Shown here in pieces: positions 1,453-60,100 of a stretch of 64,000 nucleotides of DNA (the first letter of the stretch is position 1; every line of letters starts with the position of its first letter). The notes under the pieces are model-generated. The model was not told the DNA's origin. It saw only the letters and a program-made list of their open reading frames with translations, and searched no databases. Origin of the DNA: Escherichia coli (GTDB lineage Bacteria > Pseudomonadota > Gammaproteobacteria > Enterobacterales > Enterobacteriaceae); NCBI RefSeq assembly GCF_003018255.1, contig NZ_CP027440.1. One strand, given 5' to 3'. Made by a program: the position numbers and the translations under genes.

Positions 1453-2796
1453 ATGGCGAACAGCATCACGGCGGATGAGATTCGGGAACAGTTTTCGCAG
1501 GCAATGTCAGCCATGTACCAGCAAGAAGTTCCGCAGTACGGTACGCTGCTGGAACTGGTAGCTGATGTGAATCTGGCTGTGCTGGAAAACAATCCTCAAC
1601 TGCACGAAAAAATGGTAAATGCAGACGAGCTGGCGCGACTGAATGTTGAACGTCATGGGGCGATTCGTGTTGGGACTGCACAAGAGCTTGCTACTCTTCG
1701 GCGGATGTTTGCCATTATGGGGATGTACCCGGTGAGCTATTACGATCTCTCGCAGGCGGGGGTGCCGGTACATTCCACAGCATTTCGGCCCATTGATGAT
1801 GCTTCTCTGGCGCGTAATCCCTTCCGCGTTTTTACTTCATTACTCCGCCTTGAGCTTATCGAGAACGAAATTTTGCGCCAGAAAGCGGCGGAGATTCTGC
1901 GTCAGCGCGATATCTTCACCCCACGTTGTCGACAACTGTTAGAGGAATATGAGCAGCGGGGCGGTTTTAACGAAACACAGGCACAGGAGTTTGTGCAGGA
2001 AGCCCTGGAAACGTTTCGTTGGCACCAGTCAGCAACGGTAGATGAAGAAACCTATCGCGCCTTGCACAACGAACATCGGTTGATTGCTGATGTGGTCTGT
2101 TTTCCTGGATGCCATATCAACCACCTGACGCCACGCACGCTGGATATTGACCGGGTGCAGTCGATGATGCCTGAATGCGGAATTGAACCCAAAATTCTGA
2201 TCGAAGGGCCGCCGCGCCGCGAGGTACCGATTTTACTACGCCAGACTAGCTTTAAAGCACTGGAAGAGACGGTGTTGTTTGCAGGGCAGAAACAGGGCAC
2301 GCATACCGCGCGCTTTGGTGAAATAGAACAGCGTGGCGTGGCATTAACGCCGAAAGGACGACAACTGTATGATGATCTACTGCGGAACGCTGGAACCGGG
2401 CAGGATAATCTCACTCACCAAATGCATTTACAGGAAACCTTCCGCACTTTTCCTGACAGTGAGTTTTTAATGCGTCAGCAAGGGTTGGCATGGTTCCGGT
2501 ACCGTCTGACGCCTTCAGGTGAGACGCATCGTCAGGCGATTCATCCCGGAGACGATCCACAGCCCTTAATTGAACGTGGTTGGGTAGTGGCGCAACCCAT
2601 TACCTATGAAGATTTCTTGCCTGTTAGCGCGGCGGGGATCTTCCAGTCAAATCTGGGTAATGAAACGCAGGCACGCAGTCACGGTAATGCCAGTCGCGAA
2701 GCATTTGAGCAGGCGTTGGGCTGCCCGGTTTTGGATGAGTTCCAGCTTTATCAGGAAGCGGAAGAACGCAGTAAACGTCGCTGTGGTTTGCTTTAA
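1453..2796 (+). CDS. ydcJ: DUF1338-family putative metalloenzyme (2-oxoadipate dioxygenase/decarboxylase-like)
   Basis: 447-aa ORF with GGAGG ribosome-binding site; divergent from ydcI; sequence recognised as YdcJ. Confidence 0.85.
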   Translation: MANSITADEIREQFSQAMSAMYQQEVPQYGTLLELVADVNLAVLENNPQLHEKMVNADELARLNVERHGAIRVGTAQELATLRRMFAIMGMYPVSYYDLSQAGVPVHSTAFRPIDDASLARNPFRVFTSLLRLELIENEILRQKAAEILRQRDIFTPRCRQLLEEYEQRGGFNETQAQEFVQEALETFRWHQSATVDEETYRALHNEHRLIADVVCFPGCHINHLTPRTLDIDRVQSMMPECGIEPKILIEGPPRREVPILLRQTSFKALEETVLFAGQKQGTHTARFGEIEQRGVALTPKGRQLYDDLLRNAGTGQDNLTHQMHLQETFRTFPDSEFLMRQQGLAWFRYRLTPSGETHRQAIHPGDDPQPLIERGWVVAQPITYEDFLPVSAAGIFQSNLGNETQARSHGNASREAFEQALGCPVLDEFQLYQEAEERSKRRCGLL

Positions 2797-3020
2797 ATTC
2801 TGACCATCCGCCTTTGCAAAAATTTGCCTGATTTTACAAACGAATCAGGCTCATCCCATCGACATAAAAAAATTGCCGATTTATGCATATTCTCTCAGTT
2901 CAACAATTGGATTATTAATAAATATTGTCTAGAGTGAGCGGTCATAAATAAGCACTTTCTTGCCGCTGAAAACGATCAGCGCGGGACCATTCACAACACC
3001 AGAAGGACTCACTTTCAGGT

Positions 3021-4676
3021 ATGGATCGTAGACGATTTATTAAAGGTTCAATGGCTATGGCCGCCGTGTGCGGTACCAGCGGCATTGCTTCTCTTTTTTC
3101 TCAGGCGGCATTCGCGGCAGATTCTGATATTGCCGACGGGCAAACCCAACGTTTTGACTTCTCCATTCTACAGTCAATGGCGCACGACTTAGCGCAAACA
3201 GCGTGGCGTGGTGCGCCGCGTCCGTTACCTGACACTCTGGCGACAATGACGCCGCAGGCTTATAACAGTATTCAATACGACGCCGAAAAATCGCTCTGGC
3301 ATAACGTTGAGAACCGTCAACTGGACGCTCAGTTCTTCCATATGGGAATGGGATTCCGTCGCCGCGTTCGTATGTTTTCTGTAGATCCAGCAACACATCT
3401 GGCGCGTGAAATTCACTTTCGCCCGGAGTTGTTCAAATACAACGATGCGGGTGTTGATACCAAACAATTAGAAGGGCAAAGTGATCTCGGTTTTGCCGGT
3501 TTTCGCGTGTTTAAAGCCCCCGAACTGGCGCGCCGTGATGTCGTATCATTCCTCGGCGCGAGTTATTTCCGCGCGGTTGATGATACATATCAATACGGTT
3601 TGTCGGCCCGCGGCCTGGCGATCGACACTTACACCGACAGTAAAGAAGAGTTCCCCGACTTTACTGACTTCTGGTTTGATACGGTAAAACCGGGGGCAAC
3701 CACCTTTACCGTTTATGCGTTGCTCGATAGCGCCAGCATTACTGGTGCCTATAAGTTCACTATCCATTGTGAGAAAAGTCAGGTGATTATGGATGTGGAA
3801 AATCACCTGTATGCGCGCAAAGACATTAAACAGCTGGGCATTGCGCCGATGACCAGCATGTTCAGCTGCGGTACTAATGAACGTCGGATGTGCGACACCA
3901 TTCATCCGCAAATCCATGACTCTGATCGTTTGTCCATGTGGCGGGGCAATGGCGAGTGGATTTGTCGTCCGCTGAATAATCCGCAAAAATTGCAGTTCAA
4001 TGCTTACACCGACAACAACCCGAAAGGGTTTGGTTTATTGCAACTGGATCGTGATTTCTCCCATTATCAGGACATTATGGGCTGGTATAACAAACGCCCA
4101 AGTCTGTGGGTGGAGCCGCGTAACAAGTGGGGTAAGGGCACCATCGGCCTGATGGAAATCCCAACAACGGGCGAAACGCTGGATAACATTGTCTGCTTCT
4201 GGCAGCCAGAAAAAGCGGTAAAAGCGGGTGATGAGTTTGCATTCCAGTATCGTCTGTACTGGAGTGCGCAACCGCCTGTTCATTGCCCATTAGCGCGCGT
4301 TATGGCGACGCGTACCGGCATGGGCGGTTTCCCGGAAGGTTGGGCGCCAGGTGAACACTATCCCGAAAAATGGGCGCGACGTTTTGCCGTCGATTTCGTT
4401 GGTGGTGATCTGAAAGCTGCCGCGCCAAAAGGCATTGAGCCGGTGATTACGCTTTCCAGTGGGGAAGCGAAACAAATCGAAATTCTCTATATTGAACCCA
4501 TTGATGGTTATCGTATTCAGTTTGACTGGTATCCGACTTCGGACTCCACTGATCCGGTCGATATGCGGATGTATCTGCGTTGTCAGGGCGACGCTATCAG
4601 TGAAACATGGCTGTATCAGTATTTCCCGCCAGCGCCGGATAAACGTCAGTATGTTGATGACCGCGTGATGAGTTAA
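3021..4676 (+). CDS. opgD: Glucans biosynthesis protein D (periplasmic, Tat-exported)
   Basis: 551-aa ORF; N-terminal twin-arginine signal [10 protein letters not shown]...AFA; recognised as OpgD/MdoD. Confidence 0.9.
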
Positions 4677-53700: not shown

Positions 53701-56700
53701 ATGGACGTCAGTCGCAGACAATTTTTTAAAATCTGCGCGGGCGGTATGGCTGGAACAACGGTAGCGGCATTGGGCTTTGCCCCGAAGCAAGCACTGGCTC
53801 AGGCGCGAAACTACAAATTATTACGCGCGAAAGAGATCCGTAACACCTGCACATACTGTTCCGTAGGTTGCGGGCTATTGATGTATAGCCTGGGTGATGG
53901 CGCGAAAAACGCCAGAGAAGCGATTTATCACATTGAAGGTGACCCGGATCATCCGGTAAGCCGTGGTGCGCTGTGCCCGAAAGGGGCCGGTTTGCTGGAT
54001 TACGTCAACAGCGAAAACCGTCTGCGCTACCCGGAATATCGTGCGCCAGGTTCTGACAAATGGCAGCGCATTAGCTGGGAAGAAGCATTCTCCCGTATTG
54101 CGAAGCTGATGAAAGCTGACCGTGACGCTAACTTTATTGAAAAGAACGAGCAGGGCGTAACGGTAAACCGTTGGCTTTCTACCGGTATGCTGTGTGCCTC
54201 CGGTGCCAGCAACGAAACCGGGATGCTGACTCAAAAATTTGCCCGCTCCCTCGGGATGCTGGCAGTAGACAACCAGGCGCGCGTCTGACACGGACCAACG
54301 GTAGCAAGTCTTGCTCCAACATTTGGTCGCGGTGCGATGACCAACCACTGGGTGGATATCAAAAACGCTAACGTCGTAATGGTGATGGGCGGTAACGCTG
54401 CTGAAGCGCATCCCGTCGGTTTCCGCTGGGCGATGGAAGCGAAAAACAACAACGATGCAACCTTGATCGTTGTCGATCCCCGTTTTACGCGTACCGCTTC
54501 TGTAGCGGATATTTACGCACCTATTCGTTCCGGTACGGACATTACGTTCCTGTCTGGCGTTTTGCGCTACCTGATCGAAAACAACAAAATCAATGCCGAA
54601 TACGTTAAGCATTACACCAATGCCAGCCTGCTGGTGCGTGATGATTTTGCTTTCGAAGACGGTCTGTTCAGCGGCTACGACGCTGAAAAACGGCAATACG
54701 ATAAATCGTCCTGGAACTATCAGTTCGATGAAAACGGCTATGCGAAACGCGATGAAACACTGACTCATCCGCGCTGTGTGTGGAACCTGCTGAAAGCGCA
54801 CGTTTCCCGCTACACGCCGGACGTTGTTGAAAACATCTGCGGTACGCCAAAAGCCGACTTCCTGAAAGTGTGTGAAGTGCTGGCCTCCACCAGCGCACCG
54901 GATCGCACAACCACCTTCCTGTACGCGCTGGGCTGGACGCAGCACACCGTGGGTGCGCAGAACATCCGTACTATGGCGATGATCCAGTTGCTGCTCGGTA
55001 ACATGGGTATGGCCGGTGGCGGCGTGAACGCATTGCGTGGTCACTCCAACATTCAGGGCCTGACCGACTTAGGTCTGCTCTCAACCAGCCTGCCGGGTTA
55101 TCTGACGCTGCCGTCAGAAAAACAGGTTGATTTGCAGTCGTATCTGGAAGCGAATACGCCGAAAGCGACGCTGGCTGATCAGGTGAACTACTGGAGCAAC
55201 TATCCGAAGTTCTTCGTTAGCCTGATGAAATCTTTCTACGGCGATGCCGCGCAAAAAGAGAACAACTGGGGCTACGACTGGCTGCCGAAGTGGGACCAGA
55301 CCTACGACGTCATCAAGTATTTCAACATGATGGACGAAGGCAAAGTCACCGGTTATTTCTGCCAGGGCTTTAACCCGGTTGCGTCCTTCCCGGACAAAAA
55401 CAAAGTGGTGAGCTGCCTGAGCAAGCTGAAGTACATGGTGGTTATCGATCCGCTGGTGACTGAAACCTCTACCTTCTGGCAGAACCACGGCGAGTCGAAC
55501 GATGTCGATCCGGCGTCCATTCAGACTGAAGTATTCCGTCTGCCTTCGACCTGCTTTGCTGAAGAAGATGGTTCTATTGCTAACTCCGGTCGCTGGTTGC
55601 AGTGGCACTGGAAAGGTCAGGACGCGCCGGGCGAAGCACGTAACGACGGCGAAATTCTGGCGGGTATCTACCATCATCTGCGCGAGCTGTACCAGGCCGA
55701 GGGTGGTAAAGGCGTAGAACCGCTGATGAAGATGAGCTGGAACTACAAGCAGCCGCACGAACCGCAATCTGACGAAGTGGCGAAAGAGAACAACGGCTAT
55801 GCGCTGGAAGATCTCTATGACGCTAATGGCGTGCTGATTGCGAAGAAAGGTCAGTTGCTGAGTAGCTTTGCGCATCTGCGTGATGATGGTACAACCGCAT
55901 CTTCTTGCTGGATCTACACCGGTAGCTGGACAGAGCAGGGCAACCAGATGGCTAACCGCGATAACTCCGACCCGTCCGGTCTGGGGAATACGCTGGGATG
56001 GGCCTGGGCGTGGCCGCTCAACCGTCGCGTGCTGTACAACCGTGCTTCGGCGGATATCAACGGTAAACCGTGGGATCCGAAACGGATGCTGATCCAGTGG
56101 AACGGCAGCAAGTGGACGGGTAACGATATTCCGGACTTCGGCAATGCCGCACCGGGTACGCCAACCGGGCCGTTTATCATGCAGCCGGAAGGGATGGGAC
56201 GCCTGTTTGCCATCAACAAAATGGCGGAAGGTCCGTTCCCGGAACACTACGAGCCAATCGAAACGCCGCTGGGCACTAACCCGCTGCATCCGAACGTGGT
56301 GTCTAACCCGGTTGTTCGTCTGTATGAACAAGACGCGCTGCGGATGGGTAAAAAAGAGCAGTTCCCGTATGTGGGTACGACCTATCGTCTGACCGAGCAC
56401 TTCCACACCTGGACCAAGCACGCATTGCTCAACGCAATTGCTCAGCCGGAACAGTTTGTGGAAATCAGCGAAACGCTGGCGGCGGCGAAAGGCATTGCCA
56501 ATGGCGATCGTGTCACTGTCTCCAGCAAGCGTGGCTTTATCCGCGCGGTGGCTGTGGTAACGCGCCGTCTGAAACCGCTGAATGTAAACGGTCAGCAGGT
56601 TGAAACGGTGGGTATTCCAATCCACTGGGGCTTTGAGGGTGTCGCGCGTAAAGGTTATATCGCTAACACTCTGACGCCGAATGTCGGTGATGCAAACTCG

Positions 56701-57645: not shown

Positions 57646-58291
57646 GTCGAAAATGATTGTGCGCACCAAATTTATTGATCGCGCCTGTCACTGGACCGTG
57701 GTGATTTGCTTCTTCCTGGTGGCGCTGTCCGGGATTTCGTTCTTCTTCCCGACGCTGCAATGGCTGACGCAAACCTTCGGTACGCCGCAGATGGGACGCA
57801 TTTTGCACCCGTTCTTCGGCATTGCGATTTTCGTCGCGCTGATGTTTATGTTTGTGCGTTTTGTACATCACAATATCCCGGATAAGAAGGATATTCCGTG
57901 GCTGTTGAACATTGTCGAAGTATTAAAAGGCAATGAGCACAAAGTGGCGGATGTTGGTAAGTACAACGCCGGGCAGAAGATGATGTTCTGGTCGATCATG
58001 AGCATGATTTTCGTGCTGCTGGTGACCGGGGTGATTATCTGGCGTCCGTACTTTGCGCAGTACTTCCCGATGCAGGTTGTTCGCTACAGCCTGCTGATTC
58101 ACGCGGCTGCGGGTATCATCCTGATCCACGCCATCCTGATCCATATGTATATGGCATTCTGGGTGAAAGGATCGATTAAAGGGATGATCGAAGGGAAGGT
58201 GAGCCGTCGCTGGGCGAAGAAACACCATCCGCGCTGGTATCGTGAAATCGAGAAGGCGGAAGCGAAAAAAGAGAGTGAAGAAGGGATATAA
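57638..58291 (+). CDS. fdnI: Formate dehydrogenase-N gamma subunit (cytochrome b556)
   Basis: ORF 57596..58291; ATG 57638 with GAGGAGGA site gives 217 aa; overlaps fdnH by 8 nt. Confidence 0.85.
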
Positions 58292-58313
58292 TCTCTTTTG
58301 AACTTTAAGCTGA

Positions 58314-58344
58314 AAATGGCGCTTTAAGAAGCGCCATTTTTTTA
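58314..58344. terminator. Rho-independent terminator after fdnI (aaatggcgc-tttaagaa-gcgccattt + TTTTT); overlaps the 3' end of convergent yddM
   Basis: Hairpin plus T-run read from sequence. Confidence 0.6.
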
Positions 58345-58626
58345 TTGCGTAACCAGACGGCGCAGTCGCGACACATCCACCGTTTTTTCAGCCTCTGCCA
58401 GGCTCCAGGCGTTTTGCAGATTCAGCCACATTTGCGGCGAACTGCCGATCACCACGGAAAGTTTAATCGCCATTTCCGGAGTGAGCGCCGCTTTTCCGGT
58501 CAGCAATCGGCTTGCCGTTGAGGGCGCAATTTCCATTGCTCTGGCAAACTCGCGCAGGCTGACATTAAGTTCGTCCAGTGATTCCTGAATAATGTCCCCC
58601 GGGCGGGGATGATTGGCCATTTTCAT
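58342..58626 (-). CDS. yddM: HigA-family antitoxin (XRE-type HTH)
   Basis: 94-aa ORF; HTH ([22 protein letters not shown]); immediately downstream of and overlapping a HigB-like ORF. Confidence 0.8.
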
Positions 58627-58904
58627 CAGTGATAGTCCTCGTAATCCAGTATGTATGCATCGCCATTGACGAATTCAAATGTGATTCGCCAGTTGCCCGA
58701 GACAGATATCGCCCAAATTCCATCGCGATCGCCGCTTAACGGGTGTAGTCGGTAACCGGGCATATCGATATCAGCAAGACAGCTTGCTGCATCAATCACA
58801 GCGAGTCGGTGGCGTAATCGTTTGACTTGCGTCGGTATAACGCCGGAGGTTTTGCCGAGAAGAAACAAGTCACGCAATCCCTTGTGTCTGAAATTCATTA
58901 TCAT
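58626..58904 (-). CDS. HigB-like toxin (RelE/ParE superfamily mRNA interferase)
   Basis: 92-aa ORF; resembles Proteus HigB as recalled from memory (…HKGL…LHPL.GDR.G.W.I.V..NWRITF.F.NGDAYIL.YEDYH); 1-nt overlap with yddM; likely true start a few codons in (MNFRHKGL). Confidence 0.8.
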
Positions 58905-59089
58905 CTCTTCATCCTTGTTCCTTCAAAAGGAACACTATCACTATTGTTCCGTGCAGCGCAACAAATTTCGCTACGTTTTTGCGAATTGTGAGGGGAAATA
59001 TGGGGGAGGAAAAGAAGAAGAGTGAAATTGCGGAAAGCGTCTCGCAAAACAGGCTGCGACCCGAACATGGCAGTCGCAGCAAAGGCCTC

Positions 59090-60100
59090 TTAGCGGCGGA
59101 AATCAATCACCATACGGCCACGGATTTTGCCTTCTTCCATCTCGGTAAAGATGGTGTTGATGTCCGCTAACGGACGCAGGGCGACTTTCGGCACCACTTT
59201 GCCTTCGGCGGCAAACTGGAAGGCTTCGGTTAGATCCTGGCGCGTGCCGACCAGCGAACCGACCACTTCAATACCATCCAGCACAAGGCGTGGGATGTCC
59301 AGGCTCATAGACTCCGGCGGCAGACCGACAGCCACAACACGACCGCCTGCTCGTACAGCATCAACCGCCGAGTTAAACGCAGCTTTAGCTACCGCTGTCA
59401 CCACCGCGGCGTGAGCGCCACCGGTTTTTTCTTGCACAATTTTGGCGGCGTCTTCAGTGCGTGAGTTAATCGCTAAATCAGCGCCCATTTCGGTTGCCAG
59501 TTTTAACTGCTCATCATTGACATCAATGGCGATCACTTTGGCGTTAAAGACATTCTTCGCGTATTGCAGGGCGAGGTTACCCAGACCGCCAAGACCGTAG
59601 ATAGCAATCCACTGACCGGGACGAATTTTTGACAGTTTCACCGCTTTATAGGTGGTGACCCCCGCACAGGTAATGCTGCTGGCCGCCGCCGAGTCCAGGC
59701 CATCTGGCACTTTTACCGCGTAATCGGCGACCACGATGCACTCTTCCGCCATCCCGCCATCAACGCTGTATCCGGCATTTTTAACTGAACGGCAGAGCGT
59801 TTCGTTACCACTGTTACAGTATTCGCAATGACCGCATCCTTCGTAAAACCACGCCACGCTGGCACGATCGCCTGGTTTTAATGAGGTGACACCTGGGCCA
59901 ACTTCTGCCACCACACCGATGCCTTCATGGCCCAGAATTACGCCGGTTTTGTCACCAAAATCGCCATTCTTAACATGAAGATCGGTATGACATACACCAC
60001 AACACTCCATTTTCAGCAGGGCTTCGCCATGTTTCAGTGAGCGCAGTGTTTTATCCGTAACGTCAACATGATGATCCTTCGTAACAACTGCAGCCTTCAT
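59090..60100 (-). CDS. adhP: Zn-dependent alcohol dehydrogenase, propanol-preferring
   Basis: ORF 59090..60130; ATG 60100 with AGGAGGAACT site gives 336 aa; MDR Zn-ADH motifs (GHEGIG, GLGGLG). Confidence 0.9.

Follow-up and report, generated by a model that had tools for sequence, protein, structure and literature searches.

The gene pair at positions 58342-58904 of the window, the 64,000-nucleotide stretch of Escherichia coli DNA analysed here, very probably forms a chromosomal toxin-antitoxin operon of type II, belonging to the P. vulgaris/Rts1 HigBA kind, in which the HigB toxin would be neutralised, and the operon autorepressed, by YddM. We established the family of the toxin, its catalytic residues, the architecture of the pair, its operator-like repeats, its distribution in E. 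coli and its pattern of selection. The pair most likely represents a working ribosome-dependent mRNA endonuclease module, with toxicity, neutralisation, codon specificity and operator binding presumed by analogy with the P. vulgaris system. It is already annotated and described and is no new kind of system. Its main remaining pull is evolutionary, namely the repeated loss of a toxin beside an invariant antitoxin at an ancient locus, and its practical value is modest.

The toxin gene, higB, is an intact, ATG-initiated ORF of 92 codons (58626-58904, minus strand), as seen in both the ORF list and the sequence, and yddM (higA) is an ORF of 94 codons on the same strand (58342-58626). Together they span 58342-58904 exactly, and their sizes, 279 nt for higB and 285 nt for yddM, are those of NRG857_07325/07320. 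The gene order is toxin-first, with higB upstream of yddM, which is the single-operon arrangement of HigBA systems. Base 58626 is shared by the TGA stop codon of higB and the ATG of yddM, and the junction from the end of higB to the start of yddM reads ...TAT CAC TGATG AAA ATG GCC... The pair lies between fdnI, which ends at 58291, and adhP, which is on the minus strand and ends at 59090. The toxin-first order, the one-base overlap and the location between fdnI and adhP had all been proposed in an earlier, sequence-only reading of this DNA, and they hold. A GAGGA Shine-Dalgarno motif for yddM is found within the final higB codons, 9 nt 5' of the ATG (58636-58640, minus strand), and its presence together with the TGATG overlap suggests that the translation of yddM may be coupled to that of higB. 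The Shine-Dalgarno motif of higB itself, AAGGA, is located 7 nt 5' of its ATG (58912-58916, minus strand) and is kept in E. coli and C. rodentium. In the neighbouring fdn operon, an Rfam SECIS_3 element (84 bits) was detected in fdnG (54283-54341), as expected for formate dehydrogenase-N; it agrees with the ORF list, where an in-frame UGA for selenocysteine interrupts the fdnG frame.

The 92-residue protein has PF05015 (HigB-like toxin) as its sole Pfam match, with an E value of 1.5e-17 over residues 4-92 and positions 2-91 of the 91 positions of the model; no other Pfam family matched it at E<=10. Searches of solved structures returned the HigB chains of P. vulgaris (plasmid Rts1) as the best matches, end to end and with an E value of 8e-32, followed by GraT of Pseudomonas putida (E 4e-7), and the chain of K-12 HigB (YgjN) was absent among the six solved sequences matched at E<=1. 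BLASTP against P. vulgaris HigB yielded 52 identities over 92 positions (57%) with zero gaps. The sequence-only reading had recognised a HigB/RelE-type C-terminus in this ORF, a view borne out by the Pfam match and by the identity to P. vulgaris HigB. Because of the PF05015 match and the full-length similarity to the HigB chains of the PDB, we regard the ORF as a real HigB-type gene rather than a chance ORF. With TIGR02385 (RelE/StbE), the toxin scores 17.8 bits for a cut-off of 27.9, so that it falls outside that family and is related to RelE/StbE at the superfamily level only. Its sequence is that of RefSeq WP_000605676.1, found in strains 2017.09.02CC and IAI39, and it is thus identical to the IAI39 allele; residue 41 is Ser in the window and Cys in ATCC 25922.

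In the gap-free alignment, H54, N71, R73, D90, Y91 and H92 all occupy the same positions as in P. vulgaris HigB. Mutagenesis and kinetics showed that H54, D90, Y91 and H92 are critical for the activity of the latter, with a contribution of R73; Arg73 contacts the scissile phosphate, and Asn71 adjoins His92 (PMC5027501). Lys57 of P. vulgaris HigB is replaced by Ser57 in the E. coli toxin, and the contact made by Lys57 in the former involves its backbone (PMC5027501). These data bear on another assignment of the toxin, as a ParE-type gyrase poison. The locus was named ParE-2 on the basis of the CDD ParE_toxin superfamily (PMC7232551), and its RefSeq name, 'RelE/ParE family toxin', is an umbrella term; both point to ParE. 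Nevertheless, PF05015 is the only Pfam hit, the closest solved proteins are HigB RNases (E 1e-31) and all of them are HigB or GraT, the catalytic set of the HigB RNases is fully kept, and TADB has the same locus as higBA. The evidence from the family and the active site excludes a gyrase poison, and we consider it extremely improbable that the toxin belongs with ParE.

The HigA-like nature of YddM, also part of the sequence-only reading, is well supported. With TIGR02607, the HigA equivalog of NCBIfam, YddM reaches 93.7 bits, for a cut-off of 47.7, and it harbours an N-terminal HTH_3 (Pfam) domain, which places it among the HigA-type HTH-XRE antitoxins. Its 94 residues are all the same as those of PDB entries 2ICP/2ICT, 'antitoxin HigA' (100% identity), and 2ICP is the structure of HigA of E. 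coli CFT073 (PMC6987408). The same protein (WP_000781370.1) is encoded in 14 of the 15 genomes sampled, toxin-less genomes included, and in nine of these genomes yddM differs from the window allele by 8-16 nt, all differences being synonymous. The only variant among the 15 genomes, WP_001302113.1 (E80A, T93A), was found in the toxin-less E. coli strain 9000 (record positions 528-812). Six synonymous differences are gathered within 13 nt at 58477-58489 (yddM codons 46-50), and they set the alleles of the window and of strain 2017.09.02CC apart from all eight others compared. This patch looks like a short recombination or gene-conversion tract that left the protein unaltered.

A repeat search identified two overlapping inverted repeats at 58916-58950, TGTTCCTT-N3-AAGGAACA and GGAACA-N10-TGTTCC, which are presumed to form the YddM/HigA operator. 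GGAACA-N10-TGTTCC is unique in the 64-kb window, yet 14 of 100 shuffles also contained one match, and hence the operator-like site by itself is weak evidence. Both C. rodentium and C. farmeri keep the half-sites and the upstream element TTGTTGCG and differ in the spacers, a pattern that would be expected of a HigA operator and promoter, and the repeats are retained 5' of yddM in K-12. We propose, from its conservation, that TTGTTGCG (58957-58964, minus strand) is the candidate -35 element of the higBA promoter. It is kept in both the toxin-plus and the K-12-type alleles of E. coli and in C. farmeri, and it has one mismatch in C. rodentium. The operator contains a candidate -10 element, GATAGT; the assignment of both promoter hexamers is uncertain. 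A scan for consensus promoters yielded no convincing sigma-70 promoter for higBA; its sole hit would put the -10 element at the start codon of higB and was not retained as the promoter of the operon.

RNA folding revealed a hairpin between the convergent fdnI and yddM genes (58313-58340; -16.2 kcal/mol, z -4.2), with a 12-bp stem followed by a U-rich sequence. It is likely a bidirectional terminator that ends the higBA transcript. A terminator scan of the locus had no match despite this strong fold, and Rfam searches around the locus gave just sub-threshold, sRNA-like matches on the hairpin. The spacer between fdnI and yddM (58292-58341 in the window) is 50 nt long in the window and in STEC711; ATCC 25922 and O157 have 228 nt there, and K-12 has 406 nt (record positions 2623-3028). 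These lengths fit zero, one or two copies of a unit of ~178 nt with REP-like palindromes and a second copy of the terminator hairpin. In E. coli JCH8249, an IS200/IS605 tnpA gene is inserted between fdnI and yddM (record positions 497-955). On the other side of the operon, the repeat search and the alignment of toxin-plus and toxin-minus alleles identified an adhP-proximal hairpin (GCTGCGAC...GTCGCAGC, 59053-59080) that every allele has kept and that delimits the variable segment on the side of adhP.

K-12 MG1655 has yddM alone annotated at this place, in agreement with the sequence-only reading, with 145 nt between yddM and adhP. In a MAFFT alignment of the window with K-12, the short K-12 spacer was misaligned, and this alignment was replaced by a gap-tolerant pairwise one. 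In the latter, which compares the window with the K-12 yddM-adhP interval as the sequence-only reading had suggested, the operator-like repeats and TTGTTGCG are retained directly 5' of yddM, and the remnant ...GA CAC TAA TG corresponds to the last higB codon and the stop. With the operator retained and only this last codon and stop left, the toxin ORF of K-12 has been deleted, not overlooked by annotation. The loss of its toxin partner explains the 'orphan' yddM annotation in K-12: yddM is the antitoxin left over from a HigBA module, the toxin of which a minority of E. coli (no more than ~14% of complete genomes) have kept intact.

We determined the distribution of the alleles in 5426 complete E. 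coli genomes, of which 5413 were matched by the locus query. DNA of higB was found in 1330 of the 5426, always as a single copy, and ~75% are without the toxin gene. An identical 1-nt deletion in codon 33, annotated as 'frameshifted' by RefSeq, is present in 545 of the 1330 carriers. An intact toxin is therefore possible in at most ~785 genomes (14%), and an intact 41-mer was matched exactly in 611 genomes; 174 of the carriers of higB were matched by neither of the 40/41-mers used. The sequence-only reading had supposed the toxin to be either unannotated or strain-variable. The second supposition is right, given the 1330 carriers among 5426 genomes, and the first is not, since the gene is deleted in K-12 and annotated by RefSeq elsewhere, namely wherever it is present, as 'type II toxin-antitoxin system RelE/ParE family toxin'.

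At least six different lesions of the toxin gene were found. In addition to the K-12-type deletion and the 1-nt frameshift, they comprise an O157:H7-type deletion in which the final 47 nt of higB survive behind a mosaic upstream region; a derivative of the K-12 type in E. coli JCH8249 that lacks a further 29 nt of the operator; a frameshifting 17-nt deletion; and a 9-nt in-frame deletion (WP_000605680.1). The spacer of O157:H7 TR01 (record positions 902-1046) is of the window type by adhP and of the K-12 type at TTGTTGCG and the first operator half-site, and then continues with the last 47 nt of higB. This mosaic implies an ancestor with an intact higB behind a K-12-type promoter, and thus an O157 deletion independent of the K-12 one. 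With its toxin-plus, frameshifted and deleted alleles, this one core-genome locus offers a natural series with which to ask why antitoxins outlive toxins.

Relatives of the toxin are numerous. About 2000 proteins match it at E<=1e-10 in a large protein collection, and among the matches listed nearly all have 92 residues and PF05015. Relatives with 78-87% identity to the toxin occur in Citrobacter. The higB-higA pair of C. rodentium and of C. farmeri has the chromosomal position that it has in E. coli, with the fdn operon on one side and maeA, or a gene next to it, on the other. Comparison of E. coli with Citrobacter (Nei-Gojobori) gave dN/dS ratios of 0.05-0.08 (higB) and 0.03-0.05 (higA), the dS values having reached or passed saturation. 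These low ratios indicate that both HigB and HigA have been under long-term purifying selection where they are kept. Based on the synteny with Citrobacter and on the dN/dS values, the module is old and vertically inherited at a core-genome locus of the Escherichia-Citrobacter lineage.

We also considered a mobile origin of the locus. In a plasmid collection, 539 records match the toxin, a count slightly inflated by several records of 4.8-4.9 Mb with this locus that appear to be chromosomes. Phage relatives are encoded by Escherichia phage GER2 (61% identity) and by Mannheimia phages (51%). After the closer matches of the plasmid collection, which are chromosome-sized or chromosome-derived records, had been set aside, no plasmid or phage relative exceeds 57-61% identity to the toxin; together with the synteny of the locus in Citrobacter, this led us to reject a mobile origin.

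Some type II toxin-antitoxin modules abort phage infection. Phage defence by abortive infection might therefore be the role for which the intact module is selected, a role that is compatible with a HigBA operon and that the relatives on phages and in 539 plasmid records could suggest. Nevertheless, none of the PADLOC defence models matches the toxin, and YddM has just weak, generic HTH matches in them. Moreover, the neighbours are core metabolic genes (fdnGHI, adhP and maeA) with no defence island, and the locus is vertically inherited, not mobile. We thus consider such a role quite improbable.

The main rival of a working HigBA operon is an attenuated or dispensable toxin with YddM under selection. 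The toxin would look intact but be attenuated or irrelevant, higB would be a decaying passenger, and selection would keep YddM for a regulatory, DNA-binding role or for the immunity that it confers when foreign HigB toxins arrive. Since ~75% of the genomes are without the toxin and 545 of the 1330 carriers are frameshifted, selection for toxin activity within E. coli is weak or absent, and the intact-looking allele could be attenuated. That YddM might be selected alone is also consistent with its identity in 14 of the 15 genomes and the solely synonymous differences between its alleles, with the at least six distinct lesions of the toxin, and with the inclusion of K-12 YddM as a candidate transcription factor in a ChIP-exo survey (PMC6237786). 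By contrast, the retained higB genes have dN/dS ratios of ~0.05-0.08 against Citrobacter, every catalytic residue is intact in the window, and the toxin of the window is the IAI39 protein. On balance, we regard this rival as unlikely and favour the working operon.

In the working operon, HigB would be a small RNase of the RelE fold that moves into the A site of the ribosome and cleaves mRNA there, within A-rich codons, as its P. vulgaris counterpart does. By the same analogy, the general base would be His54, the transition state would owe its stabilisation to Arg73, and the residue acting on the leaving group would be Tyr91, with Asp90 and His92 in supporting roles. YddM would be translated from the higB transcript, probably in a coupled manner via the TGATG overlap. 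As a dimeric HTH-XRE protein, it would bind and neutralise HigB, and, through the pair of overlapping palindromes that immediately precede higB, it would act as the repressor of the operon. Within E. coli, the loss of higB is recurrent and the antitoxin stays unchanged.

The several independent inactivations of the toxin beside an invariant antitoxin hint at a job of YddM that does not depend on its toxin. With HigB lost repeatedly and YddM invariant in amino acid sequence, YddM might have been selected as a standing 'anti-addiction' immunity against HigB proteins of plasmids or phage-plasmids, or as a chromosomal regulator acting at the retained operator and at other sites. We put this forward tentatively, as a possibility that is more doubtful than probable.

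The pair has been listed before. Bustamante & Vidal (2020) described the locus of the AIEC strain NRG857c as TA20, parE-2/higA-2, with genes of 279 and 285 nt, reported it also in CFT073, and noted that HS and K-12 encode the antitoxin alone at the TA20 locus (PMC7232551). TADB 3.0 has it as higBA for NRG857c and LF82, and a 2024 review states that these pairs 'remain to be characterized' (PMC11205521). The 'higBA' knockout of CFT073 reported by Norton & Mulvey (2012) concerns a different hig locus, as the knockout primer is absent from the window. The sequence-only reading had allowed for the ORF being already annotated and characterised. The former is the case, given RefSeq, TADB, the printed descriptions and the structure of the antitoxin; as for the characterisation of the toxin, no published toxicity or cleavage assay was found in a literature search that was poor in subscription journals. 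Matches to 'yddM' in the literature mostly concern the unrelated yddM of Bacillus subtilis.

The closest characterised system is HigB-HigA of P. vulgaris/Rts1 (PDB 4MCT, 4MCX, 4PX8 and 4YPB, among others), which shares with the E. coli pair the toxin-first order, the 92-residue toxin and the upstream palindromic sites. Its antitoxin likewise has an N-terminal HTH-XRE domain, and YddM aligns to residues 7-87 of PvHigA (E 1e-18). Nevertheless, the E. coli pair is chromosomal and vertically inherited at a core-genome locus, unlike the plasmid-borne Rts1 pair, and its antitoxin, at 94 residues versus 104, is more diverged than the toxin. The E. coli HigB, known from its sequence, also differs from that of P. 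vulgaris by Ser instead of Lys57. HigA of CFT073 (2ICP/2ICT) and 'parE-2/higA-2' (TA20) of AIEC strains NRG857c and LF82 are the same locus as that of the window, with allelic differences only.

GraT-GraA of P. putida (PDB 6F8S) and HigBA of P. aeruginosa belong to the same Pfam family and have HigA-type antitoxins, but they are much more distant; YddM matches GraA with an E value of 2e-11 among solved structures. In GraT, the N-terminus is disordered and has a regulatory function (PMC6393540), whereas nothing in the E. coli toxin suggests such a feature. Lastly, the K-12 HigB-HigA pair (YgjN-YgjM) shares the name, the toxin-first order and an mRNA interferase of the RelE superfamily with the pair described here, but it represents another locus and another family: its HigA has a C-terminal HTH domain (PMC6987408), in contrast with the N-terminal one of YddM.
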